Shown here: positions 57 through 39,205 of the stretch, one piece after another
Layout: each line of letters opens with the position of its first letter
Numbering within the stretch: the stretch's first letter is position 1
DNA from: Candidatus Limnocylindria bacterium
GTDB taxonomy: Bacteria > Chloroflexota > Limnocylindria > QHBO01
Direction of reading: 5' to 3'
Length of the DNA: 64,000 bases
Assembly (NCBI GenBank): GCA_050692055.1
Contig: JBOGTC010000039.1
Span: 8,060 to 72,059, forward strand
Translations under genes and position numbers: made by a program
The notes under the pieces: model-generated
Told to the model about the DNA's origin: nothing
What the model saw: only the letters and a program-made list of their open reading frames with translations
Database searches by the model: none

Positions 57-132
57 CGCTCCAGCCCAAGCCGCGGCCCGTGACGTCTTCGGCATCAGGT
101 GCGACGCGGCCTTCGGCGAGAGCAGCCGGTCA

Positions 133-339
133 GTTGCCACCTGCCAATCAGGATCGGCTTAAGCACACCGCGGGGAGAAATCTGCCCATCTCCGGCGACC
201 TGGTGAGCGTGCACCGACCGTGCAGCTGGATCGATCAGCCCCGTGAGTTCGCCGAAGCCGGCGGTGGTTGGCAGGTGGCAACGCGGAGCGCCGGAAGGCG
301 GGTTAACCCGGCGGTGGTTGGCAGGTGGCAACGCGGAGC
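133..339. repeat. REP-like element: 18-bp inverted arms plus a duplicated right arm
   Basis: GTTGCCACCTGCCAATCA (133-150) is 17/18 reverse-complementary to TGGTTGGCAGGTGGCAAC (265-282); a 32-nt block with the right arm repeats 50 nt later (258-289 and 308-339). Confidence 0.85.
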
Positions 340-393
340 ACCCGAAGGCCACAAACCCTCACGCTCCGGCCAGGGCCGCGCTAGCCTTCCGGC

Positions 394-17002: not shown

Positions 17003-17448
17003 AACCGGCGGGTTCATCCGGCGTCGACAGCCGCGCGGCGAGGCGAGGCCCCGCAAGGGTGCTGCGGTGCTTCCGGCGCGGGCCACGTCGCTTCAATGCT
17101 CGTGCTGTGCAACGTATCGGGGCTGGCCGCGGCTGAAGGAGCAGGCTGCCTCCATCAATGTGTCGTCACCGCGGCAGTGATGCGAGCTGCTGGCCGGCAT
17201 CGGTCGCTCGCGCTCGGATAAGTTGCAGGAGCGAGGCATAAGCACGAGCTGACCGGGGCCGGTACGTGCGCCGGGGTCCCGGGGCGAGGGCTGACCGCGC
17301 CCGGCCCCAGCCGCCGCCCGCGCGGGCAGAGCGGCCCGATCGCCGAGACCGACGCCGAAGCTGACGCCACGAGCCGCTGGCACGACCGATGCTCATGGAT
17401 GGCACATGACGGAACACACGGCACGAACGGCCAGGAGGAGGCGTCCAG

Positions 17449-25223: not shown

Positions 25224-27340
25224 GACGCTACCAGGAGCCGGCCCGGAGGCGGCGCGGCGTGCGTCGCGAGCGTGCGAGCGCCGCCTCGCGCTCGGTGCCG
25301 AGCCCGGCCTCGGCCCTGCATCAGATCGCGGACCACGTGGTCGACGCGGTGGTCCGCATGGACGCGGACGGCGTGATCACCGGCTGGAACGCGCATGCCG
25401 AGACGCTCTTCGGCTGGACCGCCGCCGAGGTCATGGGGCGCCGGCTGGCGGACACAATCATTCCCGCGCGTGACCGCGAGGCTCATGCGGCCGGCCTGGC
25501 CCGCTACCTGGTCGACGGTCGCGGCATCGTGCTCGACACGCACACCCAGGTCGCCGCGCTGCATCGCGACGGCCACGAGATCTCCGTCGACCTCTCGGTC
25601 ACGGCGCTGGCCGACGCGTCCGGCACCACGTTCGTGGTCTTCATGCGCGACCTCTCGTCGCAGCGGGCGGTCGAGGCGGCATTGCGCGACAGCGAGGAGC
25701 GATTCAAGTCCCTGGTCGAGAACCTGCCCGGGATCGCCTACGTCGACGAGATGGGCGGGCACGGGCGGTGGGTCAGTCCGAGGGTGGCGTCGATCCTGGG
25801 CTACACCCCGGAGGAATGGCTCGGCGACGACGAGCTGTGGGAGCGCGCCCTGCACCCCGACGATCGCGAGCGAGCAGTGGCACAGATGGTGGCCGCCGAG
25901 ACCGCCGAGGGGCCAATCGTGTACACGTATCGGCTGTTCACGCGCGAGGGCCGCCTCGTCTGGATCCGGGACCACGCCAGCGTGGTGCGCGACGGGACTG
26001 GTCAGCCGGTGGTCCAGGGCGTCATGTTCGACGTGACGCACGAGCGCGGAATCGAGGTGGAGCTGGAGCTCGAGGTGGCCGAGCGCGCGGCAATCGCGGC
26101 CGCGCTGCACCGGCTTCCGGCCGGGCAGGAGGCGTCTGCGACCGCCTCAGCCCTCTGCCGCGAGCTGCTGCGGCTCCGACATCTCGATATCGCGGTCGTC
26201 TACGAGTTCTCCCACGGCGACGCGGTCGTCCCGCTGGCCGTGGTCGCGCCGCCGGGTGCGCCGATCGCCGTCGGCCGTCCGCTTCCAATGGAACAGGCGC
26301 GCTACCTCCGCGAGAGCGCCACCGGCCCCTGGGTCGACGAATGGCACCGGACCCGCGACGACGATGACTATCGCCGCGCGTGGCTCGACGTCGGCCTGAC
26401 CTGTGGGGCATTCGTCCCCTTCGGCTCGACAGGCACCGTCCACGGCCTGATCTCGGCCGGCACCACGTCGTTGATCGGCGCGGCGGGCGTCTCGCGCTGG
26501 CTTCCGTCGCTGGCCGAGTTCGGCGCCATCGCCGCCGCCCTGCTGGTTCCCGAGCTCGCCGCTCGCCGCGAGGAGGCAGGGGCGCGATCTGCGGTGGAGG
26601 CGATCATCGCCGAGCGGCAATTCTCGGTGGTCTACCAGCCCATCGTGCGGCTCTCCGATGCGTCGGCGGTGGGCTACGAGGCGCTCGCCAGGTTCGACGA
26701 CGGGACGCAGCCGGATCGCCGCTTTGCCGAGGCGGCCGCCCTCGGGCTCGGAAGCCAGCTCGAGCTGGCGGTGATGGCGTCAGTTCTGGACGAGGCGAGG
26801 TCGCTGCCGAAGGGACCGTTTCTCAGTTTGAACCTGTCGCCCGGCCTGCTGGCTGATCCGGAAACGACACGCCTGCTGGGCTCGGCCGGCCGGCGGGCGC
26901 TGGTGCTCGAGGTCACCGAGCAGTCGGCAATCGACGACTACGACGTGGTGCGTGCCCGCGTCGGCGCCCTGCCGTCCTCCATCACGTTGGCGGTCGACGA
27001 CGCCGGCGCCGGCTTCGCCAGCCTGCGGCACATCATCGAGCTGCGCCCGAAGTACGTGAAGCTCGACATGCAGCTCGTGCGCGGGGTTGATGCGGATCCC
27101 GCGCGGCAGGCGCTCATCGCCGGCATGGTGTACTTCGCGCACCAGTCCGGCTGCCTCCTGGTAGCGGAAGGCATCGAGTCCGAGGCGGAGCGCGGAACGC
27201 TCGCCCGCCTGGGCATCCCCTTCGGGCAGGGCTTCCTCTTCGCTCAGCCGGCCCCCGTGCTCGCGATGCGCGCCCTCGGAATTGGCCGGCTGGGCCGATC
27301 GACGCCGCGCGTGACTCCCGCGAGGGTGCTCGGCGCCTGA
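25220..27340 (+). CDS. PAS-PAS-(GAF)-EAL c-di-GMP phosphodiesterase
   Basis: Two PAS domains; YQPIV, YEALARF, LEVTE, DDAGAGF, VKLD, AEGIE; ATGA overlap with the DGC. Confidence 0.92.
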   Translation: MRRYQEPARRRRGVRRERASAASRSVPSPASALHQIADHVVDAVVRMDADGVITGWNAHAETLFGWTAAEVMGRRLADTIIPARDREAHAAGLARYLVDGRGIVLDTHTQVAALHRDGHEISVDLSVTALADASGTTFVVFMRDLSSQRAVEAALRDSEERFKSLVENLPGIAYVDEMGGHGRWVSPRVASILGYTPEEWLGDDELWERALHPDDRERAVAQMVAAETAEGPIVYTYRLFTREGRLVWIRDHASVVRDGTGQPVVQGVMFDVTHERGIEVELELEVAERAAIAAALHRLPAGQEASATASALCRELLRLRHLDIAVVYEFSHGDAVVPLAVVAPPGAPIAVGRPLPMEQARYLRESATGPWVDEWHRTRDDDDYRRAWLDVGLTCGAFVPFGSTGTVHGLISAGTTSLIGAAGVSRWLPSLAEFGAIAAALLVPELAARREEAGARSAVEAIIAERQFSVVYQPIVRLSDASAVGYEALARFDDGTQPDRRFAEAAALGLGSQLELAVMASVLDEARSLPKGPFLSLNLSPGLLADPETTRLLGSAGRRALVLEVTEQSAIDDYDVVRARVGALPSSITLAVDDAGAGFASLRHIIELRPKYVKLDMQLVRGVDADPARQALIAGMVYFAHQSGCLLVAEGIESEAERGTLARLGIPFGQGFLFAQPAPVLAMRALGIGRLGRSTPRVTPARVLGA

Positions 27341-27526
27341 CTACATGCTCGGGACGTAGCCCGGGTCGAAGTACCTGGCGGGGTCATCGCGGAAGTCAAG
27401 CATGCATCCCCTGCCACAGAAGTAGTAGGGCTTGCCCTCGTGCTCGGCGGTGAGGCCCTGCGCCTGCGCCACCTCTGGGCTGACCTCCATGCCGCACACC
27501 GGGTCCCTCGCCACGTCCGTCGTCAT
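27341..27526 (-). CDS. YHS-domain protein
   Basis: DPVCGM, YYFCGRGC, DPARY. Confidence 0.9.
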   Translation of the reverse strand: MTTDVARDPVCGMEVSPEVAQAQGLTAEHEGKPYYFCGRGCMLDFRDDPARYFDPGYVPSM

Positions 27527-27591: not shown

Positions 27592-27766
27592 GTCGCCAGA
27601 TTCATGCCTGGTATGCGCCGGGCGCCCGGTATCGGTCTGTAGTCACCAAATTCATGCCAGGGCGAGCACCGCGGCTGGAACTCGACCCTCCTCGGCGCTT
27701 CGTGCAGACGGGGTGAGAATCTGGCGACTCGCGGCTAGCCACGCGCCTGGATCTGGGGACTCGCGG
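27592..27766. repeat. Mosaic repeat copy A: 50-bp satellite (27592-27641), 87-bp core (27642-27728), degenerate extra arm
   Basis: GTCGCCAGATTCATGCC at 27592, GTCACCAAATTCATGCC at 27642, GAATCTGGCGAC ending 27728; CTGGCGACTCGCGG and CTGGGGACTCGCGG repeat 32 nt apart. Confidence 0.85.
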
Positions 27767-27780
27767 GTGCCAGCAGCGCA

Positions 27781-30054
27781 TCATGCGACGCGGAACGACC
27801 GCAGGCGGAGCGAGTTGGCGACCACGCTCACGCTCGACAGGGCCATCGCGCCGGCAGCCAGGGCCGGGCTGAGCAGAAGCCCGGCGACCGGGAACAGCGC
27901 CCCCGCCGCCACCGGAATCAGCAGCACGTTGTATCCGAAGGCCCACCCCAGGTTCTGGCGGATCGTGCGCATCGTCGCGCGCGACAGGCCGATGGCGCCC
28001 GGCACGCCGCGCAGGTCGTCTCCCACCAGCGTGATGTCGGACGCCTCGAGCGCCACGTCGGCGCCGGTGCCGATGGCGATGCCGACGTCGGCCTGGGCCA
28101 GCGCGGGAGCGTCGTTGATGCCGTCTCCGACCATCGCCACGCTTCGCCCATCCGCCTGAAGCCGAGCGATCTCCGCGGCCTTCTGCGCTGGCAGCACCTC
28201 GGCCAGGATGCGCTCGGGACCGATGCCCACCGTGGATCCGATGGCCTGGGCGGTCGTCCGGCGATCGCCGGTGAGCATCCAGACCTCCAGCCCGGCATCC
28301 TGCAGACGCCGGACAGCCTGCGTCGACTCGGGCTTCACGGTATCGGCGATGGCGATGAGCCCGATGAGCACGCCGTCGCGGGCCACGAACACCGCTGAGC
28401 TGCCGGACGAGGCCACGCCATCGGCGCGCTCGCGCAGCGGCGAAATGTCGATGCCCGATGAGGCCAGGAAGGCCTCGGCACCGACGAGCACAGCCGTCCC
28501 TTCGACGGCAGCGCTGACGCCCTGGCCGGCGACCGCCTCGAACGCCGTCGTGATCGCGATCTCGATCCCGACCCGCTCCGCGTGGCGCACGACCGCCTCG
28601 GCCAGTGGATGCTCGCTGCCCCGTTCGGCTGCGGCGGCGACATGCAGCAGCGTCCGCTCGTCGATGCCGGCGGCGGGGATCACCTCGGTCACCGATGGCT
28701 CTCCGCGCGTGATGGTGCCGGTCTTGTCGAGCACCACCGCGTCGACCCGGTGGGCGTGCTCGAGTGCCGCGCCGTCCCGGACCAGGATGCCGCTCTGCGC
28801 ACCTTTGCCCGTGCCGACCATGATGGCGGTCGGCGTCGCGAGACCCATGGCGCACGGGCAGGCGATGATCAGGACGGCGATGGTGCTGGCCAGGGCGTAC
28901 GTCAGCGCCGGCTCGGGGCCGATGAGGAGCCAGCCGGCGAAGGTGAGGGTCGCCAGCACGATGACGGCGGGCACGAACCAGCCTGTGACTCGATCCGCCA
29001 ACCGCTGGATGGGGGCCTTCGAGCCCTGTGCCCGCTCCACGAGGTCGACGATCTGGGCGAGCGCGGTGTCGCGCCCGACGCGTTCGGCCCGCATGACGAA
29101 GCTGCCGGAAGCATTCATGGTCGCGCCGATGACCCGGTCGCCGCTCACCTTCTCGACCGGCATCGATTCCCCGGTGAGCATCGACTCGTCGACCGCCGAC
29201 GCTCCCTCGAGCACCACGCCGTCGACGGGCACCCGGTCGCCGGGTCGGACGCGGACGAGATCACCGGCCACGACCTGCTCCACCGGAACGTCGATCTCGC
29301 GCCCATCGCGCAGCACGCGAGCAGTGGCGGGACGGAGCTTCAGCAGTGCCTTGACCGCGCCGGCCGCGCGTCCCTTGGCGCGCGCTTCCAGCCACCGGCC
29401 GAAGAGGATGAGGCCGATGATGATCGCGGCCGAATCGAAATAGGTCTCGTGCGACACGCCGGCCGCCATCAGCGCGTCCGGCATGAGCGTCACGAACAGC
29501 GAGTAGCCGTACGCCGCCAGCGTCCCCATCGCCACGAGGGTGTTCATGTTCGCCTCGCCGTGCCTGGCGCCCCGCAGGGCGGCCACCAGGAACCGACGAC
29601 CGTAGACGAACTGGACGATCGTGGCCGGAGCCAGGAACCAGACGTTGATGCGGTCCATCGGCCACGGCGCGCCGCCCGGCCAGAACATGACGGCCATCAT
29701 CGCCAGGCCGACCGCCGTCGAGACGAGGGCACCGATGAGCAGGTCACGCTGCTCGGCGGATGGTTGCGCCTCCTCGGCCGCGTCGGCCGCCGAAACCTCC
29801 ACGGAATCCTCGGCGCGCCGATCGGGGCGCACCTCGTAGCCGGCGGCCTCGATGGCGGCGACGATGCCGGTGCGATCGATCAGCGCCGGATCGAAGCGCA
29901 CGCTGGCGCGTTCGGTCGCCAGATTGACGCTGGCGTCGCTGACTCCATCGGCCCTGCGCAGGAAGCGCTCGATCCGGTTCACACAGCTGGCGCAGGTCAT
30001 GCCCACGACGGGCAGGGAAAGCTCGGCATCGGTCGCGACATTCGGGGTGCTCAT
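27781..30054 (-). CDS. copA: Copper-translocating P1B-type ATPase
   Basis: GMTCASC, TGES, CPC, DKTGT, HPL, GDGIND, YN and MALSS motifs; start chosen at MSTPNV. Confidence 0.95.
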
Positions 30055-30066
30055 CGGTCCCACGAG

Positions 30067-30085
30067 GATACTATGGGGGAGTATC
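30067..30085. promoter_or_regulatory. CsoR/RcnR-type operator upstream of copA
   Basis: GATACTATGGGGGAGTATC = TACT-7 nt with G-tract-AGTA; overlaps a minus-strand -10-like TAGTAT (30068-30073). Confidence 0.7.
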
Positions 30086-30224
30086 GCGTGTCGAGGCGTG
30101 ACGTTGCAGGAAACCGATAGCTTGCCCGCTCTCCATGCATGCGTTCCGTTGTCAGAACGACGGTCAGTCACGGAATCCGCATGCGTGCGAGGCATGGCCC
30201 TTGCAAGTGAACTCACGAGACACC

Positions 30225-30635
30225 ATGAAACCTCGTCACATGACTCAGTCAAGGCGTGGCACAGGCAGCTCTTCGGCCCGTGCGCGCCGTCGCGCCTTCG
30301 TCGTTGACGACAACGTAGAGACCCTCACGCTCCTCGACGATGTCGTGCGGAATGCCGGCTGGGAGACGAGGTGCTTCACGCGTCTGCGGTCGGTGCGCCG
30401 CGCTCTACGTGAGTCACCGCCCATGCTGATGATCCTGGATGACGAATTGCCCGATGGCCGAGGCGGTGACCTCGTGCAGGAGCTCCGAAGCGATCCGCGG
30501 CTGCGCGACGTCTCGGTCATCGTCTGCACGGCCGCCGATCCCGCGCGCCAGGCCGAGATCGGGGCGTGGGCGCCGGTCCTCTCGAAGCCATTCAGCCTTG
30601 CCGACCTTGAGCGTTATCTCCAGCGCGCGGCCTGA
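30225..30635 (+). CDS. Single-domain response regulator
   Basis: [22 protein letters not shown]. Confidence 0.85.
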
Positions 30636-30681
30636 GCGCCCTCGCGGCTGGGCGCAGTCCGGCCTGCTACGCTTCGGTGCG

Positions 30682-31899
30682 ATGCGCGCGCTGGTTCTCA
30701 CCAACGAGTTCCCGCCCGCGATCTACGGTGGCGCCGGTATCCATGTGGCCGAGCTGACGCGCCACCTGCGCTCGCTGATCGAGCTCGACGTTCGCACCTT
30801 CGGCGGCCATCACGAGGCCGAGGACCGATGGCGGGCGCGCGGCTATCCCGTCTCGCACGAGCTGGACACGGCCGACGAGCGCCTGCGGCCGATCGTCGGC
30901 GCGCTCTCGCGCGACATCGGCATGCTCGCCGATCCGGTCGCGGCCGACGTGGTCCACTGCCACACCTGGTACACCCACCTCGCCGGGATCCTGATCCGCC
31001 TGGCCTACGGCATCCCGCTGGTGATCACCGTCCACTCGCTGGAGCCGTTGCGGCCATGGAAGCGGGAGCAGCTCGGCGGCGGCTACGACGTCAGCAGCTG
31101 GGTCGAGCGGACGGCGCTCGAGATGGCCGATGCCGTCATCGCGGTGAGCGAGGAGACGCGCGCGGACGTGCTGCGACTCTTCCCGGCCGTGGTGCCTGAG
31201 CGCGTGCACGTCATCCACAACGGGATCGACACCGATTTCTATCGCCCCGATCCTGCGACCGACGTGCTCGACGGCTACGGCGTCGATCCGTCGGGCCCGT
31301 ACGTGCTCTTCGTGGGTCGCGTGACACGGCAGAAGGGAATCGTCCACCTGGTCCGAGCGATTCGGCATCTCGATCCGTCGATCGGCGTCGTGCTGTGCGC
31401 CGGCCAGCCGGATACGCCACAGATCGCGGCCGAGATGGAGGCCGGCCTCGCCGAGGCGCGCCGGCAGCGAGAGAACGTGACGTGGATCGGCGAGATGGTC
31501 AGCCGCGAGGCAGTCCGGCAGCTGTACAGCCATGCGACGGTCTTCTGCTGTCCATCGGTCTACGAGCCGTTCGGGATCATCAATCTCGAGGCTGCCGCCT
31601 GCGAGACGCCGGTCGTGGCGAGCGCCGTGGGCGGCATTCCCGAGGTGGTGGTGGATGGCGAAACCGGGCTGCTCGTGCCGGTCGAGCTCAGCCTGGACGA
31701 TCCGATGTCGCCGATCGACCCCGACCGCTTCGAGCGCAACCTGGCCGGTGCCATCAACGCCCTTGTCGCCGATCCGGCCGGTCGTGAGGCGATGGGTCGC
31801 GCCGGACGGGCACGCGCCATCGAGCACTTCAGCTGGTCGTCGATCGCCGAGCGCACAGTCGCCCTGTACGAGTCGCTGGCGCTCGCCCGGGCGTCGTGA
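30682..31899 (+). CDS. glgA: GT4 glycogen synthase, actinobacterial GlgA/GlgM type
   Basis: TNEFPPAIYGGAG, HCHTWY, HSLEPLRPWKREQLGGGY, FVGRVTRQKG, YEPFGIINLEA. Confidence 0.92.
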   Translation: MRALVLTNEFPPAIYGGAGIHVAELTRHLRSLIELDVRTFGGHHEAEDRWRARGYPVSHELDTADERLRPIVGALSRDIGMLADPVAADVVHCHTWYTHLAGILIRLAYGIPLVITVHSLEPLRPWKREQLGGGYDVSSWVERTALEMADAVIAVSEETRADVLRLFPAVVPERVHVIHNGIDTDFYRPDPATDVLDGYGVDPSGPYVLFVGRVTRQKGIVHLVRAIRHLDPSIGVVLCAGQPDTPQIAAEMEAGLAEARRQRENVTWIGEMVSREAVRQLYSHATVFCCPSVYEPFGIINLEAAACETPVVASAVGGIPEVVVDGETGLLVPVELSLDDPMSPIDPDRFERNLAGAINALVADPAGREAMGRAGRARAIEHFSWSSIAERTVALYESLALARAS

Positions 31900-31923
31900 C
31901 GATCCAGCGACCGCGCAACGCGC

Positions 31924-32601
31924 TTAGGGCGTGACGCGCGACATGAGCGCCAGCGTGTTGCCCTCGCCATCCTCGAAGAAGGCCATCCACTCCTCGGCGC
32001 CGGTGTCGTCATCGGTGTAGATGAGGTGTGGCGCTCCGCTGAAGCGAACGCCGCGGCGCACGAGCTCAGCGTGGGCGGCGTGGATCCCGTCGACGACGAA
32101 ATACAGGATCGAGCCTGGGCGCCACTCATCCTCGCCCTTGCGATGCAGGTAGATGCGGACCCCTGCGGCGTCGAAGAAGGCGAGATCGCCGAACGTGAAC
32201 AGATGCCGCAGGCCGAGGACCTCGCCGTAGAAGCGCTTCGCGCGTTCGACGTCCCTGATCGAAAGCGAGACTTGGCCGATGGCGTTCAGCGACAGGCCGT
32301 TCACCTCGGTCGCGGCGTCCGCGGCTGGATTGGATGGGCTGCCTGTCATGTGACTGCTCCTGGTGCGTGCGAGAAGGCTTGTGGACGGGATGCCGGGCCA
32401 CTGCCGCAGCGCGGTTGGGCCACGGACGCCCAGCTTGCCGGCGATGTTCGCGAGGTGGAACTTGACCGCGTGAAGGCTCGTTCCTCGGCGACGCCCGATC
32501 TCCTGCCGCGAGGCGCCATGCCGCAGGAGATTCAGCACCTCCCACTCGGCGGGGGTCAGCACGTCGGGGTGAGGCGGTCGTCCGCGGCCTCGGTGTCTCA
32601 T
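31924..32601 (-). CDS. LuxR-type HTH fused to a VOC/glyoxalase domain
   Basis: LTPAEWEVL..HAVKFHLANIAGKL HTH; IGQVSLSIRDVERAKRFY..LYFVV..FFEDGEGNTLALM VOC. Confidence 0.85.
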   Translation of the reverse strand: MRHRGRGRPPHPDVLTPAEWEVLNLLRHGASRQEIGRRRGTSLHAVKFHLANIAGKLGVRGPTALRQWPGIPSTSLLARTRSSHMTGSPSNPAADAATEVNGLSLNAIGQVSLSIRDVERAKRFYGEVLGLRHLFTFGDLAFFDAAGVRIYLHRKGEDEWRPGSILYFVVDGIHAAHAELVRRGVRFSGAPHLIYTDDDTGAEEWMAFFEDGEGNTLALMSRVTP

Positions 32602-32654
32602 CGTGGAAAGAGCCTAGCGAAGCAGGCGAGGAATTACCCTCCCCTCAGCCTCAA

Positions 32655-32741
32655 GTCGCCAAATTCATGCCTGGCCGGCACGCGGCCAGAAGAACAGCCG
32701 CCTTACAGCCATGGTGCGGCTCCCGGGCTGAATCTGGCGAC
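32655..32741. repeat. Mosaic repeat copy B: 87-bp core
   Basis: GTCGCCAAATTCATGCC…GCTGAATCTGGCGAC; interior alignable to copies A, C and D. Confidence 0.88.
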
Positions 32742-32838
32742 TAGAAGAGGTGCCTGAGGTCCTCGTGCCTGAGAACGACGGCACGGTCGGTCCAACGGCC
32801 GATGACGTGGCGGCCGACTCCCCGCTAGCATCGCCGCC

Positions 32839-33651
32839 ATGACTTCCCCGAGCACCCTGGAGCGGCGGCGCCCGCTCGGCGCCGACGAGCGAACGCCGAT
32901 CATCGTCGTCAGCGATCTTCGCAAGCGCTACGGCAGCCTGACCGCGGTCGACGGGGTCAGCTTCGAGGTCCACGCCGACGAGGTCTTCGGCATCCTGGGA
33001 CCGAACGGCGCGGGCAAGACCACGACGCTCGAGATGATCGAGGGCATGCGCTCGATCGACTCCGGCTCGGCCAGCGTGGACGGCCTCGACGTGGCCAGCG
33101 ACCCCCGCGGCGTGAAGCGGCGCATCGGCATCCAGCTGCAGTCGAGCGCCTTCTTCGACGAGCTCAACCTCGTCGAGCTGCTGCACCTCTTCGGCCGAAT
33201 GTACGAGCGCGACGTGGACGCCATGGACCTGCTTGCCCAGGTCGAGCTGACCGAGAAGGCGCATGCGCAGGTGCGCACGCTGTCGGGAGGTCAGAAGCAG
33301 CGCTTCAGCATGGCCTCGGCGCTGGTGAACGACCCACGCGTCCTCTTCCTCGACGAGCCGACGACCGGGCTCGATCCGCAGGCCCGCCGCCACATGTGGG
33401 GCCTGATCCGCCGCATCCAGGCCGATGGCCACACCGTGGTCCTGACCACCCACTACATGGAGGAGGCGGAAGAGCTCTGCGGCCGCGTGGCGATCATGGA
33501 CCGCGGGCGGATCATCGCCCTCGACACGCCGCAGCGGCTCATCGACGACCTGGTCGGGCGCGGCTTTCGCAAGGAGCGCGTGGAGCGGCTGGCCAACCTG
33601 GAGGACGTCTTCATCGACATCACCGGCCACGAGCTGCGGGACGAGGACTGA
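32839..33651 (+). CDS. ABC-2 exporter ATP-binding subunit
   Basis: GPNGAGKT, LSGGQ, FLDEPTTGLD, TTHYMEEAE. Confidence 0.95.
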   Translation: MTSPSTLERRRPLGADERTPIIVVSDLRKRYGSLTAVDGVSFEVHADEVFGILGPNGAGKTTTLEMIEGMRSIDSGSASVDGLDVASDPRGVKRRIGIQLQSSAFFDELNLVELLHLFGRMYERDVDAMDLLAQVELTEKAHAQVRTLSGGQKQRFSMASALVNDPRVLFLDEPTTGLDPQARRHMWGLIRRIQADGHTVVLTTHYMEEAEELCGRVAIMDRGRIIALDTPQRLIDDLVGRGFRKERVERLANLEDVFIDITGHELRDED

Positions 33652-33654
33652 CCG

Positions 33655-34764
33655 ATGCGCCTCACCGGCATCCGGCTCGGCATGTTCTGGGCCCTCTTCG
33701 TCGCCAGCAGCAAGATGTTCATCCGCAACCGCGCAGCCGTCTTCTTCAGCCTCTTCCTGCCGCTCATCATCATGCTCATCTTCGGCGTGCTGAACTTCGA
33801 GGGCAGCACCGAGATCGATCTGGGCATCGTCGACGAGGCCGATAACGAGGCGAGCAACGACCTCGTCGCGGGCCTCGAGGAGTACGACTACCTCATCATC
33901 AGCGCAGGCGAGCAGGCGGGGGAGCTCGAGGCGCTCGAGGCCGGCGACCGCGACTTCGTGCTCACCATCCCCGCCGATTGGGCGCCGCCCGCGCCGGGGC
34001 TGCCGACCGGGCTGGTCGCGCGCTCCGCCACGTCGGATCCGGCGCAGGCGCAGGTGGCGCAGGGGCTGCTGCAGCAGGCCATCGGCCAGGCGATCTTCGC
34101 GCCGGGAGGCGATGGCGGCGCGGGGGCCTTCACGCCGCCCGTGGACGTCGAGGCGGTCCAGTCGCGCGACCTGGGCTACATCGACTTCCTGGTCCCGGGC
34201 ATCGTTGGCATGACGGTCATGCAGCTCGGGCTGTTCGGCGTCGCATTCGGCTTCGTGCAGCTCAAGCGCACCGGGGCGCTGCGACGGCTCTTCGCCACAC
34301 CGACCTCGCCCGCCTACTTTCTGTCGGCGCAGGTGGCCTCCCGCCTCATCATCGGCGTGGTGCAGGTGGCGATCCTGTTCGGCATCGGCCTGTGGTTCGG
34401 GCTCCAGATGTTTGGCGACTACATGAGCCTGGCCGTGATCGTCATCATCGCCTCGGCGATCTTCCTGGCCGTCGGCTTCGCGATTGCGGGCTGGGCCAGG
34501 AACGAGGACCAGGCGGCGCCGGTGGCCAACCTCATCAGCCTGCCGATGCTCTTCCTGTCCGGCGTCTTCTTCCCGCGTGACGCGATGCCCGACATCCTGG
34601 CCAGCATCACCCAGTTCATGCCGCTCACCTATGTCAACGAGGCGCTGCGCGCGGTCGTGAACGACGGCGCCACGCTGCCGGCTCTGGGGCCGCAGCTGCT
34701 CGGGATGGGCGTCTGGGCGATCATCACCTTCGTGATCGCGGTGATGCTCTTCAAGTGGGAGTAG
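33655..34764 (+). CDS. ABC-2 exporter permease
   Basis: Six-TM ABC2_membrane pattern; YIDFLVPG, FLSGVFFP. Confidence 0.92.
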   Translation: MRLTGIRLGMFWALFVASSKMFIRNRAAVFFSLFLPLIIMLIFGVLNFEGSTEIDLGIVDEADNEASNDLVAGLEEYDYLIISAGEQAGELEALEAGDRDFVLTIPADWAPPAPGLPTGLVARSATSDPAQAQVAQGLLQQAIGQAIFAPGGDGGAGAFTPPVDVEAVQSRDLGYIDFLVPGIVGMTVMQLGLFGVAFGFVQLKRTGALRRLFATPTSPAYFLSAQVASRLIIGVVQVAILFGIGLWFGLQMFGDYMSLAVIVIIASAIFLAVGFAIAGWARNEDQAAPVANLISLPMLFLSGVFFPRDAMPDILASITQFMPLTYVNEALRAVVNDGATLPALGPQLLGMGVWAIITFVIAVMLFKWE

Positions 34765-34768
34765 GTCC

Positions 34769-35134
34769 GTGAAGCTGATCGAGCTCCTGCTGCGCCTCGA
34801 GTGGCTGGTGGTCTTCCTGGCCGGCATCGGCCTCTACCTGGCCATGAACGGCCACCCGCTGTGGCTGCTGCCGCTGCTCCTGGCGCCGGACGTCTCGATG
34901 CTCGGCTACCTCGGCGGTCCGCGCCTCGGCGCGGCCACCTACAACGCGGCACACAACCTGGTGGTCGCGCTCAGCGTCCTGGCCATCGGCTGGTTCGCGG
35001 CGCTGGCGCCCGTGGCTTTGGCCGGCGCTCTGCTCGTGGCGCACGTTGGCATGGACCGATCGCTGGGCTACGGGCTCAAGCTGGCGACCGGCTTTCGCGA
35101 CACGCATCTCGGCCGGATCGGGACGGACCGATAA
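34769..35134 (+). CDS. DUF4260 family membrane protein
   Basis: LLLRLE, PDVSMLGY, YNAAH, AHVGMDRSLGYGLK. Confidence 0.88.
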   Translation: MKLIELLLRLEWLVVFLAGIGLYLAMNGHPLWLLPLLLAPDVSMLGYLGGPRLGAATYNAAHNLVVALSVLAIGWFAALAPVALAGALLVAHVGMDRSLGYGLKLATGFRDTHLGRIGTDR

Positions 35135-35141
35135 TGGACCG

Positions 35142-36551
35142 ATGCATCCGCATGCCTCCGGACCGATCAGCCGGCGGCGCCTGCTGCAGCTGGGGGCGGC
35201 GGCCTCGGCGGCCGGCCTGGCGGCCTGCGCCGCACCGATCCCCTCGCTGACGCCGCGGCAATCTCCCGCCTCGGCGCCGACCTCCACGCCAAGCCCGTCG
35301 CCCTCTCCGACCCCCGCTGCCACGCCGTCACCCTCACCCACCGCGACCCCGGTGCCGGCAACGGGGAGCATGCTGTACCGCGACGGCGCCCTGGCGGACG
35401 GCCGCTCCGCGGCGCTGGAGCGTAACGTCAGCATCCTCGTCAGCGACGGCCGCATCGCCTGGATTCGCCCGACCGGCGGCGAGGAGGACTCGAGCGGCGC
35501 GCGCGTCATCGACTGCGCGGGGGCGACCTTCGTCCCGGGGATGGTCGACTGCCACAGCCACGTCACCGGTCCGGGCGGCGCGAACTGGATCGCCCGCTTC
35601 AACGACCCACCCGAGGAGCTGGTCGCCGTGGCCGAGCACAACGGCCGCATCGGCATGGCGGCGGGGGTGCGCTGGATGCGCGACGTGGGGTCGCCGCTCG
35701 GCGCCGACCCCGTCGACGGCCGCGAGCGCGCGCTGGCGCTCGGCGTGCGGGACCGATGGGCCGGCCGGATCGACCGGCCCTACCTGCGCGCCGCCGGCTC
35801 GTGGCTCTTCAAGAGTGGCGTGAACCCGATGCGCTCGGCGATCGAGGTGCAGACCGGCGACGAGCTGCTGGCCGCGGCGATGGGCCAGCTCGACGCGGGC
35901 GCCGATCTCGTGAAGCTCTACATGGATGGCCCGGACGCGAACGTCAGCCCATGGACGGCGAACGAGGTGAGCCGCGTCGTCGAGGCGGTGCATGCCCGCG
36001 GCGCGCGCGTGGCCGCGCACTCGGGTCGCCTCAACGGCGCGCAGGCGGCGGCGGCCGGCGGCGTCGACTCCATCGAGCATGGGTTCGACCTCGATGCCGC
36101 GGTGGCGGCCGAGATGGCGCGTCGAGGCATCGTGCTGGTCACCACGCTATCGGTCCAGCGCTCGTGGCTCTCCTTCGGCAACACCACCTCGATGGAGCGG
36201 TTTGCCGGCGAGGCAGGTCGCGCTGCGAACGCGGCGCGGCTCGAGCAGGGGGAGGCGTCGATGCGGCTGGCGCGTGACGCCGGCGTGCCAATCGCGACCG
36301 GCAGTGACTTCGGCGGAGGGTCGCTGCGCGCGAACCAGCTGGCTTGGGAGGTGACGAGCCTCGTGTCGGCCGGCCTGGAGCCGGTCGATGCCCTGGCCGC
36401 CGCCACCTGGCGCGGAGGGGAGCTCCTCGGCGAGGCCGAGGCGGGCATCATCCGCGAGGGCGGTCCGGCCGACTTCTTCCTCGTCCACGGCGACCCGCTC
36501 TCGGATCCCGAGTCCCTCTGGCGCGTCTGGCGCACCGCCTGGGCGCCGTAG
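35142..36551 (+). CDS. Amidohydrolase (Xaa-Pro dipeptidase-like) with a Tat lipoprotein signal
   Basis: SRRRLL..LAAC, P/S/T linker, PGMVDCHSH, VKLY, AAH, SIEHG, TGSD. Confidence 0.88.
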   Translation: MHPHASGPISRRRLLQLGAAASAAGLAACAAPIPSLTPRQSPASAPTSTPSPSPSPTPAATPSPSPTATPVPATGSMLYRDGALADGRSAALERNVSILVSDGRIAWIRPTGGEEDSSGARVIDCAGATFVPGMVDCHSHVTGPGGANWIARFNDPPEELVAVAEHNGRIGMAAGVRWMRDVGSPLGADPVDGRERALALGVRDRWAGRIDRPYLRAAGSWLFKSGVNPMRSAIEVQTGDELLAAAMGQLDAGADLVKLYMDGPDANVSPWTANEVSRVVEAVHARGARVAAHSGRLNGAQAAAAGGVDSIEHGFDLDAAVAAEMARRGIVLVTTLSVQRSWLSFGNTTSMERFAGEAGRAANAARLEQGEASMRLARDAGVPIATGSDFGGGSLRANQLAWEVTSLVSAGLEPVDALAAATWRGGELLGEAEAGIIREGGPADFFLVHGDPLSDPESLWRVWRTAWAP

Positions 36552-36735
36552 GCTCGGTATCGGCTCAGCCGGTATCGGCGCTCCACGTCGGCAGCCGTGT
36601 CGGCTCAGCCGCATCTGTGCGCATCCCGGGCGCTGCCAGCGCACATCCGGGGCGTTGTGACCAGATCTCGCGGTCCGCGTGCAGGACCGCCGCGGCGTCC
36701 GGCCGCGGCGGTCAGGGTCGCCAGGAAGGAGCTGC

Positions 36736-37182
36736 CTAGCTGAACGGGTCGGTGTCGCGCCTATCCGTCCGCCCCAGGTCCTGGTCCGTCCGACCGAAGT
36801 CCGGGCCCGCGGGGCGGTTCGTGGGATCGCCCTCGACTCCACGCCCGTAGTAGGTGCCGACCTGGTCGCGATAGGCCTGGTCGTGATAGCCGAACTCATC
36901 CAGCTCAGGCGCGTTCTTGATCTCGTCCTTCGTCCGGTTCACGAAGACCTTGCGGTCGGTCTCATCGATGCGCTCGATGACGCCCGCCGGCAGCATCACC
37001 TTCTTGCCGAAGATCCACGGTCCCGTGTCGACGATGAGATAGCTCGCATCGACCTCGTTCGTCGACTCGTCGATGGTCCCGATGCTTCCGTCACGTGCCT
37101 CGACCCCGAAGCCCGATAGGTCGATGCCGGCCCAGGCCGTGTCGCCATAGGCCCACATCTCGACAACTGTCATTCGCTCCAT
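36736..37182 (-). CDS. PRC-barrel domain protein
   Basis: GFGVEARDGSIGTID..YLIVDTGPWIFGKKVMLPAGVI..TKDEIKNAPE. Confidence 0.88.
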   Translation of the reverse strand: MERMTVVEMWAYGDTAWAGIDLSGFGVEARDGSIGTIDESTNEVDASYLIVDTGPWIFGKKVMLPAGVIERIDETDRKVFVNRTKDEIKNAPELDEFGYHDQAYRDQVGTYYGRGVEGDPTNRPAGPDFGRTDQDLGRTDRRDTDPFS

Positions 37183-37304
37183 GATCTGAGTCCCTCTGCG
37201 GTGCAATCACTCCCAGGGGGTGCAGCCCGCGTGCCCGTTCGTCGCCGAATCGACGAGCGAGCCCTCGGTATCTCGCGTGCCTGGTACCCTCGTCACCACG
37301 CCAG

Positions 37305-37442
37305 ATCGCCAGATTCATACTCAGCATGCACGCCTGTCCGAAAACGGCGGTCCTGGTCGCCGTGGTGCGGTGCCCGGCCTGAATCTGGCGACAACGACGG
37401 CCCGCAGCTCGCCCCGTGCAGCCTGGGCATGAATATGGCGAC
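37305..37442. repeat. Mosaic repeat copy C: 88-bp core (37305-37392) plus 50-bp satellite (37393-37442)
   Basis: ATCGCCAGATTCAT…CCTGAATCTGGCGAC, then GCATGAATATGGCGAC ending exactly 50 nt later. Confidence 0.88.
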
Positions 37443-37671
37443 ACGCCGCGGCGACGGCGGCGCTGCGCAGCGGAGCCTCGCTGTGTCGGGACCATGGCGG
37501 CGCTTGCTACCCTTTGCCCATGACCGATCGTCCCGATTTCGGCCGGCGGCCGCCGAAGGCGCCACGGAAGAGCCAGGCGTCGGGGTCGACACGGTCAGCG
37601 TGATGGACGGTGTTGAGCAAGTCGGCTGACACGACGGGCGCCGACAGTTCCCGGACAGCGGTGGGTGCTGC

Positions 37672-38991
37672 ATGACCGATCCGATTCGCTACGCGCGCAG
37701 CGGCGAGGTCAACGTCGCATTCCAGGTGACAGGCGACGGGCCATTCGACCTGGTCCTGGTACCGGGATTCTTCTCCCACCTCGAGATCGATTGGGAATAC
37801 CCAGCCATGGCGGGCATGCTCGAGCGGCTGGGTTCGTTCGCCAGGCTCATTCGCTTCGACAAGCGCGGTACTGGCCTTTCCGACCGATCGGTCGGCCTCC
37901 CCGACTTCGAGACGCGCATGGATGACGTCAGGGCTGTCATGGATGCCGCTGGCAGCGAGCGGGCGGCGCTGCTTGGGTACTCGGAAGGCGGACCGATGTG
38001 CGTACTCTTCGCGGCCACCTATCCCGAGCGCACGCGCGCCCTCGTCCTGTACGGGACGTACGCGAAGCGCCAGCACCCGGACGAGGACTACCCGTGGGCG
38101 CCGACGTCCGAAGAGCGCCTGCGGTACGCGAAGGAGCTCGAGGCGACGTGGGGCGAGAACACGGACATCGCGAAGATGTCGCCGAACGCCGACGAGGCGC
38201 TGGTGGCGTGGTTTCAGCGCCGAGGGCGGGCTTCGCTGAGCCCGGCGGCAGCGCGCGACCTGATCCTCATGAACTCACAGGCAGACGTCCGCCACGCCCT
38301 CCCCGCAGTCCAGTGTCCGACCCTCGTCCTGCACCGTAGCGGCGACCGCGACTCGCGGGCTGACGAAGGACGCTACATCGCGGCGAAGATTCCGGGCGCC
38401 CGCTTCGTCGAGCTGAGTGGGGACGATCACCTGCCTGCCGTCCGCCCGGACGAGATCATCGACGAGGTCGAGGAGTTCCTCACCGGCGTACGCTCCGCGC
38501 CCGCGGCGGACCGCGTGCTGGCCACGGTGCTGTTCACTGATCTCGTCAGCTCAACGGCCAGGGCCGAGACCCTCGGTGATACGGCGTGGGCCAGCCTTCT
38601 CAGGTCGCACAACGAGGCCGTTCGTCGTGAGCTTGCCCGCTTCTCCGGCGAGGAGATCGACACCGCGGGCGACGGGTTCCTCGCCGTCTTCGACGGGCCC
38701 GCGCGGGCCATCCGGTGCGCCCTCGAGATCCGTGCCGTGGTAGGCCGGCTCGGGCTGGATGTGCGGGCGGGCGTGCACACCGGAGAGGTCGAGCGGCGTC
38801 GCGGTGACAAGCCGCAGGGGATCGCCGTGCACGTTGGTGCCCGCATCATGTCGCTGGCCGCGGCGAAGGAGGTCCTCGTCAGCTCGACGACGCGAGACCT
38901 CGTCGCGGGCTCTGGCCTCGAGTTCGACGACCGGGGAGAGCACGAGCTGAAGGGGATCGAGGGACGCCGCCGCGTCTTCGCCGCACGCTGA
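37672..38991 (+). CDS. Alpha/beta-hydrolase fused to a class III adenylate/guanylate cyclase (LipJ/Rv1900c-like)
   Basis: GYSEGG nucleophile motif; VLFTDLVSST, TAGDGF, RAGVHTGE, GIAVHVGARI. Confidence 0.92.
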   Translation: MTDPIRYARSGEVNVAFQVTGDGPFDLVLVPGFFSHLEIDWEYPAMAGMLERLGSFARLIRFDKRGTGLSDRSVGLPDFETRMDDVRAVMDAAGSERAALLGYSEGGPMCVLFAATYPERTRALVLYGTYAKRQHPDEDYPWAPTSEERLRYAKELEATWGENTDIAKMSPNADEALVAWFQRRGRASLSPAAARDLILMNSQADVRHALPAVQCPTLVLHRSGDRDSRADEGRYIAAKIPGARFVELSGDDHLPAVRPDEIIDEVEEFLTGVRSAPAADRVLATVLFTDLVSSTARAETLGDTAWASLLRSHNEAVRRELARFSGEEIDTAGDGFLAVFDGPARAIRCALEIRAVVGRLGLDVRAGVHTGEVERRRGDKPQGIAVHVGARIMSLAAAKEVLVSSTTRDLVAGSGLEFDDRGEHELKGIEGRRRVFAAR

Positions 38992-39068
38992 CCGGGCTCG
39001 CCAGCAGAGCAGGCGTCCGTGCGTCCGGGTGGCCGTGGCGATCGAGTGAGGTCGGGCACGGGGAGCGA

Positions 39069-39205
39069 GTCGCCATATTCAGGCCAGGCATGCATGACTT
39101 GCCGAGAGGGCGCTCGTAGCCGCCATCCTGCGTTGCCACGTCTGAATTCGGGGCCAAGGACGACCTGGGGCTCGCCCCATGCAGGCCCCATATGAATCTG
39201 GTTGC
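39069..39205. repeat. Mosaic repeat copy D (decayed): 87-bp core (39069-39155) plus 50-bp satellite (39156-39205)
   Basis: GTCGCCATATTCAGG…CTGAATTCGGGGCC; satellite shares GCTCGCCCCRTGCAG with copy C and ends ATGAATCTGGTTGC. Confidence 0.8.

Follow-up and report, generated by a model that had tools for sequence, protein, structure and literature searches.

The 64,000-nt stretch of Candidatus Limnocylindria DNA analysed here (the window; contig C39, positions 8060-72059) contains four copies of a dispersed intergenic repeat, a small element of ~137 nt in which three related arms stand at fixed distances from each other. The source of the window is a 2.69-Mb metagenome-assembled genome (MAG) with 70% GC, assembled in 169 contigs and ~90% complete. 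(In the following, C numbers denote contigs, G000 is the source genome and other G numbers are its relatives.) We conclude that the element belongs to an undescribed superfamily of dispersed repeats that is restricted to one taxonomic family. With a probability of about 0.65, it represents an old, lineage-restricted and non-autonomous family of the kind of repetitive extragenic palindromes (REPs), bacterial interspersed mosaic elements (BIMEs) or miniature inverted-repeat transposable elements (MITEs), whose three phased boxes are recognition sites for a protein.

The 13-mer box GTCGCCAGATTCA occurred 15 times in the window when up to two mismatches were allowed (1.8 expected), a number reached in none of 100 shuffled sequences. 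With at most one mismatch, 47 occurrences were found in the source genome versus 0-11 in each of 40 relatives, and a reversed control pattern gave 0-2 matches. A listing of the boxes revealed two recurrent patterns, +,+,- with start-to-start distances of 50 and 74 nt and +,-,- with distances of 74 and 50 nt, which represent a single asymmetric ~137-nt element read in either direction. It begins with a left arm, followed 50 nt on by an inner arm in the same orientation and a further 74 nt on by an inverted right arm. The spacing was 50 ± 1 and 74 ± 1 nt in every full copy.

An arm of ~27-30 nt consists of box A (GYCGCCAGATTCA), 6-8 variable bases and a TGCA or CGCA box. The left arm reads GTCGCCAGATTCATACCnGGnaTGCAc; the inner arm, GTCGCCAGATTCAg...GCAGGACGGyG, also bears a conserved GCAGGAYGGCG; and the inverted right arm, GTGCAG.C...GTATGAATCTGGCGAC, is usually followed by TCG. 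The arms form ~27-nt terminal inverted repeats around an element that has no open reading frame (ORF) and no coding capacity. As a rule, the arms (GYCGCCAGATTCA-N6-8-TGCA) are not self-complementary, and they have no GTAG head. No common target sequence was found in the flanks. Note that the arm presumably shares GTCG...GGCTGCAC with the inverted repeat of Tn402, a likeness on which we do not rely.

This architecture revises a sequence-only reading of the window, which had described four 87/88-bp cores in the same orientation, three of them with a 50-bp satellite. The four loci lie exactly where that reading had placed them (Table 1). However, copy 1 (27592-27728) is inverted with respect to copies 2-4, and within the source genome core and satellite are one asymmetric ~137-nt unit read on either strand. 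The extra arms reported 50 nt outside the core are present at 27592 and 37430-37442, whereas the arm at 39193-39205 carries 3 mismatches and is degenerate. The likeness seen between the 50-nt modules (GCTCGCCCCGTGCAG and GCTCGCCCCATGCAG) is real and corresponds to the reverse complement of the TGCA box of the left arm and the bases that follow it.

The same reading had proposed a genome-wide family. Indeed, an nhmmer profile detected 29 loci in the source genome, 17 full and 12 partial. All copies were intergenic by a simple gene call based on third-position GC content, many of them 2-80 nt past a stop codon. Copies avoid divergent promoter regions (9 lie in convergent and 13 in tandem contexts but only 2 in divergent ones, a depletion with P=0.04), occur in both orientations relative to the neighboring genes and are also found inside operons, such as prfA-prmC. 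They are locally clustered, with another copy within 6 kb at 11 of the 29 loci versus 2.8 expected (P=0.0016); the four copies of the window form one such cluster.

We searched for the element beyond the source genome at several levels of stringency. The exact two-box pattern was present in 6 genomes (4 genera) of the same taxonomic family and absent from ~245 genomes of the class outside that family. Within the taxonomic family, a sequence-only profile (R1, built from alignment A1) matched 79 of 161 genomes, representing 17 of 24 genera, and nearly all matches were full length (130-142 nt). In ~185 genomes from the other families of Limnocylindria it found no relatives, and among 301 genomes sampled across the class, each of the 43 matches at E≤1e-5 fell within that one taxonomic family. 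When one genome per species was scanned with the strict two-box pattern, the only hit was an AT-rich Saprospiraceae palindrome, which was judged to be a chance match. A metagenome scan with the strict pattern gave no match. A looser pattern returned 120 metagenome contigs, of which ~10 high-GC soil contigs were true relatives by nhmmer; most of the 120 were chance or unrelated matches, such as human-gut contigs at 47% GC. BLAST against the PLSDB plasmid collection detected no similar sequence.

Between genera the arm sequences drift (for example TTCGCCAGATTCAGATGACAGCCGCACG in G016 and TTCGCCAGATTCATGCGGCATGCGCAC in G088), while the GCCAGATTCA core, the inner GCAGGAYGGCG box and the length of the element are kept. 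The ~50-nt arm module can be iterated, as in an array of five arms (+,+,+,-,-) at intervals of 50/51 nt in G302 (C36:2282-2462), in which the central pair forms a tight 29-nt palindrome. A sister family in the source genome, family Y, carries a single arm on one side and a pair on the other; the pair has the 50-nt offset of the 137-nt family, and the GCCAGAT core is shared as well. Its units of ~200 nt are more abundant than the 137-nt family (~45-50 copies, several at contig ends) and form subfamilies with common interior sequence, and family Y therefore looks younger. The 50-nt arm period shared by family Y and the G302 array points to a common geometry, and we count it in favor of phased recognition sites.

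Among 15 aligned full copies, the three boxes were 76-84% identical between copies. In contrast, the identity of the spacers was 37-40%, equal to the background of unrelated flanks (35-38%), indicating that the spacers are saturated. Nevertheless, the saturated spacers differ in length by at most one base. If neutral daughters were derived from a master copy, the spacers would be expected to be at most ~2-fold as diverged as the boxes. The observed divergence exceeds this limit, so that selection on boxes and geometry would be required. We conclude that boxes and spacing are under purifying selection, with the spacers free to vary.

Orthologous copies could be compared between G088 and G198, two species of one genus with four elements at corresponding sites. 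In these four pairs, 325 of 381 box positions were identical versus 113 of 165 spacer positions (Fisher p=1.2e-5). Thus, the boxes are conserved in place, and not merely through the survival of active lineages. Such conservation would not be expected of a repeat that is purely selfish and suggests a retained or acquired function.

Such a function could reside entirely in the host. The element would then be an exapted repeat, offering three sites to a DNA-binding protein of the host at gene ends, with proposed roles in termination, insulation, topology or nucleoid organisation and with its mobility largely in the past. REP/BIME sites of E. coli bind gyrase and IHF. Box conservation in orthologs, strict spacing over 17 genera, the preference for gene 3' ends, the copies inside operons and the lack of any tested candidate transposase in element-bearing genomes (see below) are all consistent with this possibility. 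We nevertheless consider it the less likely account: roughly every second genome of the taxonomic family lacks a copy, so the element is dispensable; positions mostly differ between genera; lineage-specific insertion and tandem duplication both occur; and neither a partner protein nor a terminator-like T-tract was identified.

We analyzed whether the constraint lies in the sequence or in a fold. Each copy folds into a long hairpin because its arms are inverted. The RNAalifold consensus contained the paired terminal arms, one short interior helix and nothing else. Complementarity between segments of the same copy (in cis) was no better than between segments of different copies (in trans), left and right arms included. 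In an alignment of 33 sequences, drawn from six genomes and a number of metagenome contigs, 79% of the cells in the arms were paired versus 76.5% after shuffling, and mid-arm columns were 40-58% unpaired. Left and right arms co-varied at columns 36/132 (CG in 17 sequences, UA in 14), a difference that separates lineages and is equally expected for two sites read by one protein. A search for a known RNA family, proposed with the sequence-only reading, gave just two sub-threshold chance matches when Rfam was scanned by E-value over 13 kb. Scanning for promoter and terminator consensus sequences revealed nothing at the elements, and no terminator-like T-tract was found.

A structured non-coding RNA gene or cis-acting RNA element, consisting of a long arm-closed hairpin with a conserved internal loop, thus appears improbable. 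The hairpin formed by every copy, the co-variation of the arms and the precedent of the enterobacterial repetitive intergenic consensus (ERIC), elements thought to act as RNA, are in line with it. However, the single short helix inside the arms, the absence of cis-specific complementarity, the unpaired mid-arm positions, the lack of an Rfam match, the occurrence of copies in both orientations to flanking genes and the missing promoter or terminator consensus all argue otherwise. From the paired-arm, cis/trans, Rfam and promoter/terminator results together, we conclude that the constraint is at the level of sequence and, hence, that recognition by a protein is a likelier explanation than an RNA or DNA fold.

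The proposal that the repeat is mobile was supported by comparison of filled and empty sites. In G088, an element occupies the spacer between lipA and lipB, where its sister species G198 has 11 unrelated bases and the source genome a 12-nt spacer, indicating that the family is or was mobile. Copy 1 of the window is likewise an insertion relative to the genus g2, in which the spacer between the P-type ATPase and YHS genes measures 30 nt and an element lies one gene further on. The seemingly shared position beside the P-type ATPase in the two genera reflects neighboring, not identical, intergenic sites. Positions are mostly not common to different genera, and tandem duplications of element plus flank occurred in G088 and G016. 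The family spans most genera of one taxonomic family and has gained copies over evolutionary time. A second public assembly of the source organism was 100% identical over 5.3 kb and hence offered no comparison of filled and empty sites.

Two further observations concern the insertion sites. A hyper-abundant word, CATCGGTCC / GGACCGATG, is often located within ~60 nt of elements (in the flanks of several G000 copies) and was duplicated along with the element in the tandem pair of G016 (G016:C278, stretch L013 261-640). Separately, a different sequence of ~277 nt with the ends ATCAGAGTC...CATCTGACAG is present in G198 (G198:C2:~194453-194730) where G088 has a 137-nt family element. Such a site could be an insertion hot spot or could reflect repeat-by-repeat replacement.

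Next, we searched for a partner enzyme. The sequence-only reading had seen no REP-associated tyrosine transposase (RAYT) in the window, and this absence extends well beyond it: PF01797 (Y1 HUH) had no match in the source genome or in 10 relatives, 5 of them element-bearing, whereas control genomes gave matches. Mobilisation by a RAYT, as in REP/BIME systems or in REP doublets forming hairpins (REPINs), is thereby largely refuted, and we give it hardly any weight. The extragenic location, the inverted units at fixed spacing, the lack of target duplication and the neighboring IS110-family elements would be as for REPs, but besides the missing enzyme the arms are not self-complementary hairpins and have no GTAG head.

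The only rve gene of the source genome is IS481-like, with 17-nt inverted repeats of its own and no GCCAGAT arms, and is unrelated to the element. Genes enclosed by two copies, considered as transposase candidates, proved to be ordinary genes (methylmalonyl-CoA mutase on C43 and the hydrolase-cyclase of the window).

IS110-family (DEDD, bridge-RNA) elements were considered as well. The source genome, which has the highest repeat load, contains seven diverse matches to the transposase (PF02371; Table 1), and IS110-family copies adjoin repeats of three families: the 137-nt family, family Y and an unrelated family X (see below). One of them lies directly beside a truncated 137-nt family copy (C47 near 6760). 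Insertion of IS110 leaves no target duplication, and IS621 and ISPpu9/10 are known to target REPs. It is nonetheless very unlikely that the elements are mobilised by, or derived from, these insertion sequences (ISs). No IS110-family gene was found in G088, G198, G016, G135 or G302, all of which bear the element and one of which has a species-specific insertion; IS110 is therefore not a general mobiliser. In addition, the element flanks share no target sequence. The adjacency is better explained by IS110 targeting of palindromic repeats (PMC1525189, PMC11208160). Insertion of IS110/IS1111 elements into REP-like palindromes has been described (PMC1525189, PMC11208160, PMC11187229), and our data suggest that the IS110-family elements of the source genome behave in this way.

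Several results weigh against a protein-bound, mobile repeat family. Searches of the Y1/RAYT, DDE_Tnp_1, rve and IS110 families identified no cognate protein, and no autonomous element bounded by the arms was found. DDE_Tnp_1 had no match in the source genome, and G088, which is assembled in 4 contigs, contained no widely spaced arm pairs. Note that the source MAG, being ~90% complete and in 169 contigs, could lack a repeated IS. At the single testable site (G088 filled, G198 and G000 empty), the junctions showed no direct repeat and hence no target-site duplication, which is atypical for MITEs derived from DDE elements; older copies are uninformative in this respect because their flanks are saturated. 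The conservation of boxes in place is also unexpected for a repeat that is purely selfish, and the binding of a protein is a step that we infer from the pattern of conservation. Of the earlier suggestion that a cognate protein sets the fixed lengths, one part fits well, the spacing of ±1 nt despite saturated spacers; the protein itself was not found.

Weighing these points, we still favor the reading of the repeats as an old non-autonomous family with protein-recognition sites, and the following model would accommodate the data. The arms would be docking sites of one sequence-specific DNA-binding protein, be it a transposase, a recombinase or a host protein descended from such an enzyme. This protein may assemble on the three phased sites, much as on transposon ends with several transposase-binding sites, and the assembly would mediate excision and insertion. 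Resident boxes might be kept because they are still substrates of the protein or because the bound complex now serves the host, for instance where genes end. More specifically, and only tentatively, a DNA-binding or recombinase protein peculiar to this Limnocylindria family may dock on the three phased boxes. Such a protein could be a transposition enzyme that moves ~137-nt units with 2+1 geometry and leaves no target duplication, or else a domesticated protein acting at gene ends; both versions would have the elements selected in situ and not merely tolerated.

Dispersed intergenic repeats are well studied in Proteobacteria. For Limnocylindria, the titles and abstracts returned by a full-text literature search contained no description of such repeats. 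Like enterobacterial REP/BIMEs and Pseudomonas REPINs, the element family consists of short extragenic units, inverted and direct, at fixed spacing and mostly near gene 3' ends, with no target duplication, long maintenance and use as landing sites by the IS110 family. BIMEs, moreover, are bound by host proteins. In contrast to these systems, our family has no RAYT gene, no GTAG head and no arms that form individual hairpins, its unit is a 2+1 arm triplet of fixed 137 nt, and no sequence relationship was seen.

With MITEs (Correia/NEMIS of Neisseria, RUP and Nezha) the element shares a size of ~100-200 nt, terminal inverted repeats of ~26 nt, the non-coding and intergenic nature, presence/absence polymorphism between related genomes and local clustering. 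Unlike in MITEs, there was no target duplication at the single testable site, and the search for a partner IS found none; the interior has become saturated, yet the exact length and the three boxes persist, and an additional copy of the terminal arm lies inside the element. ERIC elements, also called intergenic repeat units (IRUs), are imperfect palindromes of ~127 nt that occur in many genera of one family (Enterobacteriaceae) at low to moderate copy number, with signs of selection and an unknown mobilising enzyme. Compared by description, the element resembles them in size, family-wide spread over genera, copy number and signs of selection. However, ERIC is conserved along its whole length, versus three boxes here, and belongs to a different phylum. 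Direct repeats of the terminal site within one end, in unequal numbers (2+1, and up to 3+2 in G302), are also seen at the ends of Tn7, Mu, IS21 and Tn402/Tn5053. This likeness is one of logic only, as TG...CA termini and a 5-bp duplication are missing and neither a matching rve-type transposase nor a helper ATPase was found. In conclusion, the element works like a REP/BIME or MITE, yet it lacks the defining properties of REP-RAYT systems, and neither the target duplication (at the one informative site) nor the partner IS of a MITE was found.

The genes next to the copies of the window encode an EAL/PAS protein, a P-type ATPase, a glycosyltransferase, a LuxR-glyoxalase, an ABC transporter, an amidohydrolase, a hydrolase-cyclase and Lhr. 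Neighbors outside the window include prfA-prmC, nrdR and methylmalonyl-CoA mutase, all of them ordinary genes.

Table 1. Copies of the 137-nt element in the window and related features (window coordinates unless a contig is given; rc, reverse complement).
Feature	Position	Strand	Remarks
Copy 1, full element, model orientation	27592..27731	+	nhmmer 110 bits; between P-type ATPase gene stop (- strand) and small YHS-domain gene
Copy 1, left arm	27592-27619		
Copy 1, inner arm/box	27642-27676		
Copy 1, right arm	27701-27728		
Copy 1, conserved TCG	27729-27731		
Extra degenerate arm	27748..27760	-	GTCCCCAGATCCA, 2 mismatches; 32 nt outside copy 1
Copy 2, truncated 87-nt element	32655..32741	-	nhmmer model positions 34-153; right arm and inner arm only, no left-arm box in next 50 nt; divergent intergenic region, LuxR-glyoxalase gene / ABC ATPase gene
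Copy 3, full element, inverted	37305..37442	-	nhmmer 106 bits
Copy 3, right arm (rc)	37305-37332		
Copy 3, inner box (rc)	37358-37392		
Copy 3, left arm (rc)	37415-37442		
Copy 4, full element, inverted, more decayed	39069..39205	-	nhmmer 103 bits; between hydrolase-cyclase gene and lhr
Copy 4, right arm (rc)	39069-39096		
Copy 4, inner box (rc)	~39121-39155		
Copy 4, left arm (rc)	39178-39205		box with 3 mismatches
Family Y copy	102..369	+	arms GTTGCCAGATGCCAACC / GTTGCCAGATGCCAACCaccGCCGGCTT
IS110-family matches	C141:~11999, C58:~2037, C47:~7087, C169:~18594, C30:~939, C85:~30134, C129:2-115		outside window

Beside copy 1, directly downstream of the P-type ATPase gene, an ORF of ~66 amino acids on the - strand (window ~27326-27526) has a YHS/TRASH-like metal-binding motif (DPVCGM...YYFCGRGC). 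This small ORF is kept in the genus g2, and copy 1 parts it from the ATPase gene solely in the source genome.

Two further repeats of the source genome were recorded. Family X is the most abundant, with ~80 copies of ~170 nt (TTGCATCACATGGAGGTATCGGTGAAGAAGAGGCC...GGCCTTCTTCCCC...ATGCAA; for example C3:28045-28240 and C15:5712-5907), and has no sequence relation to the 137-nt family. A repeat of ~220 nt, TGCAACTTATCCGAGCG...CGATAAGTTGCA, is located at window positions 17080-17303 (C39:25139-25362) and at C1:2898, C16:49381 and C47:6788. The C47 copy directly adjoins the 3' side of an IS110-family transposase ORF, and the repeat may therefore be the non-coding (bridge/seek-RNA) end of that IS, present here as solo copies.

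For the genomes of these bacteria, the repeats have practical consequences. The 137-nt family and at least two more abundant families of the same genome break MAG assemblies; the repeats also appear to attract IS110-family elements and are usable as strain markers. The conservation of boxes and spacing over 17 genera and in orthologous copies, with the rest randomised, strongly points to a specific protein-DNA assembly. The partner protein, if found, would reveal either a new mechanism of mobilisation or a case of repeat domestication.

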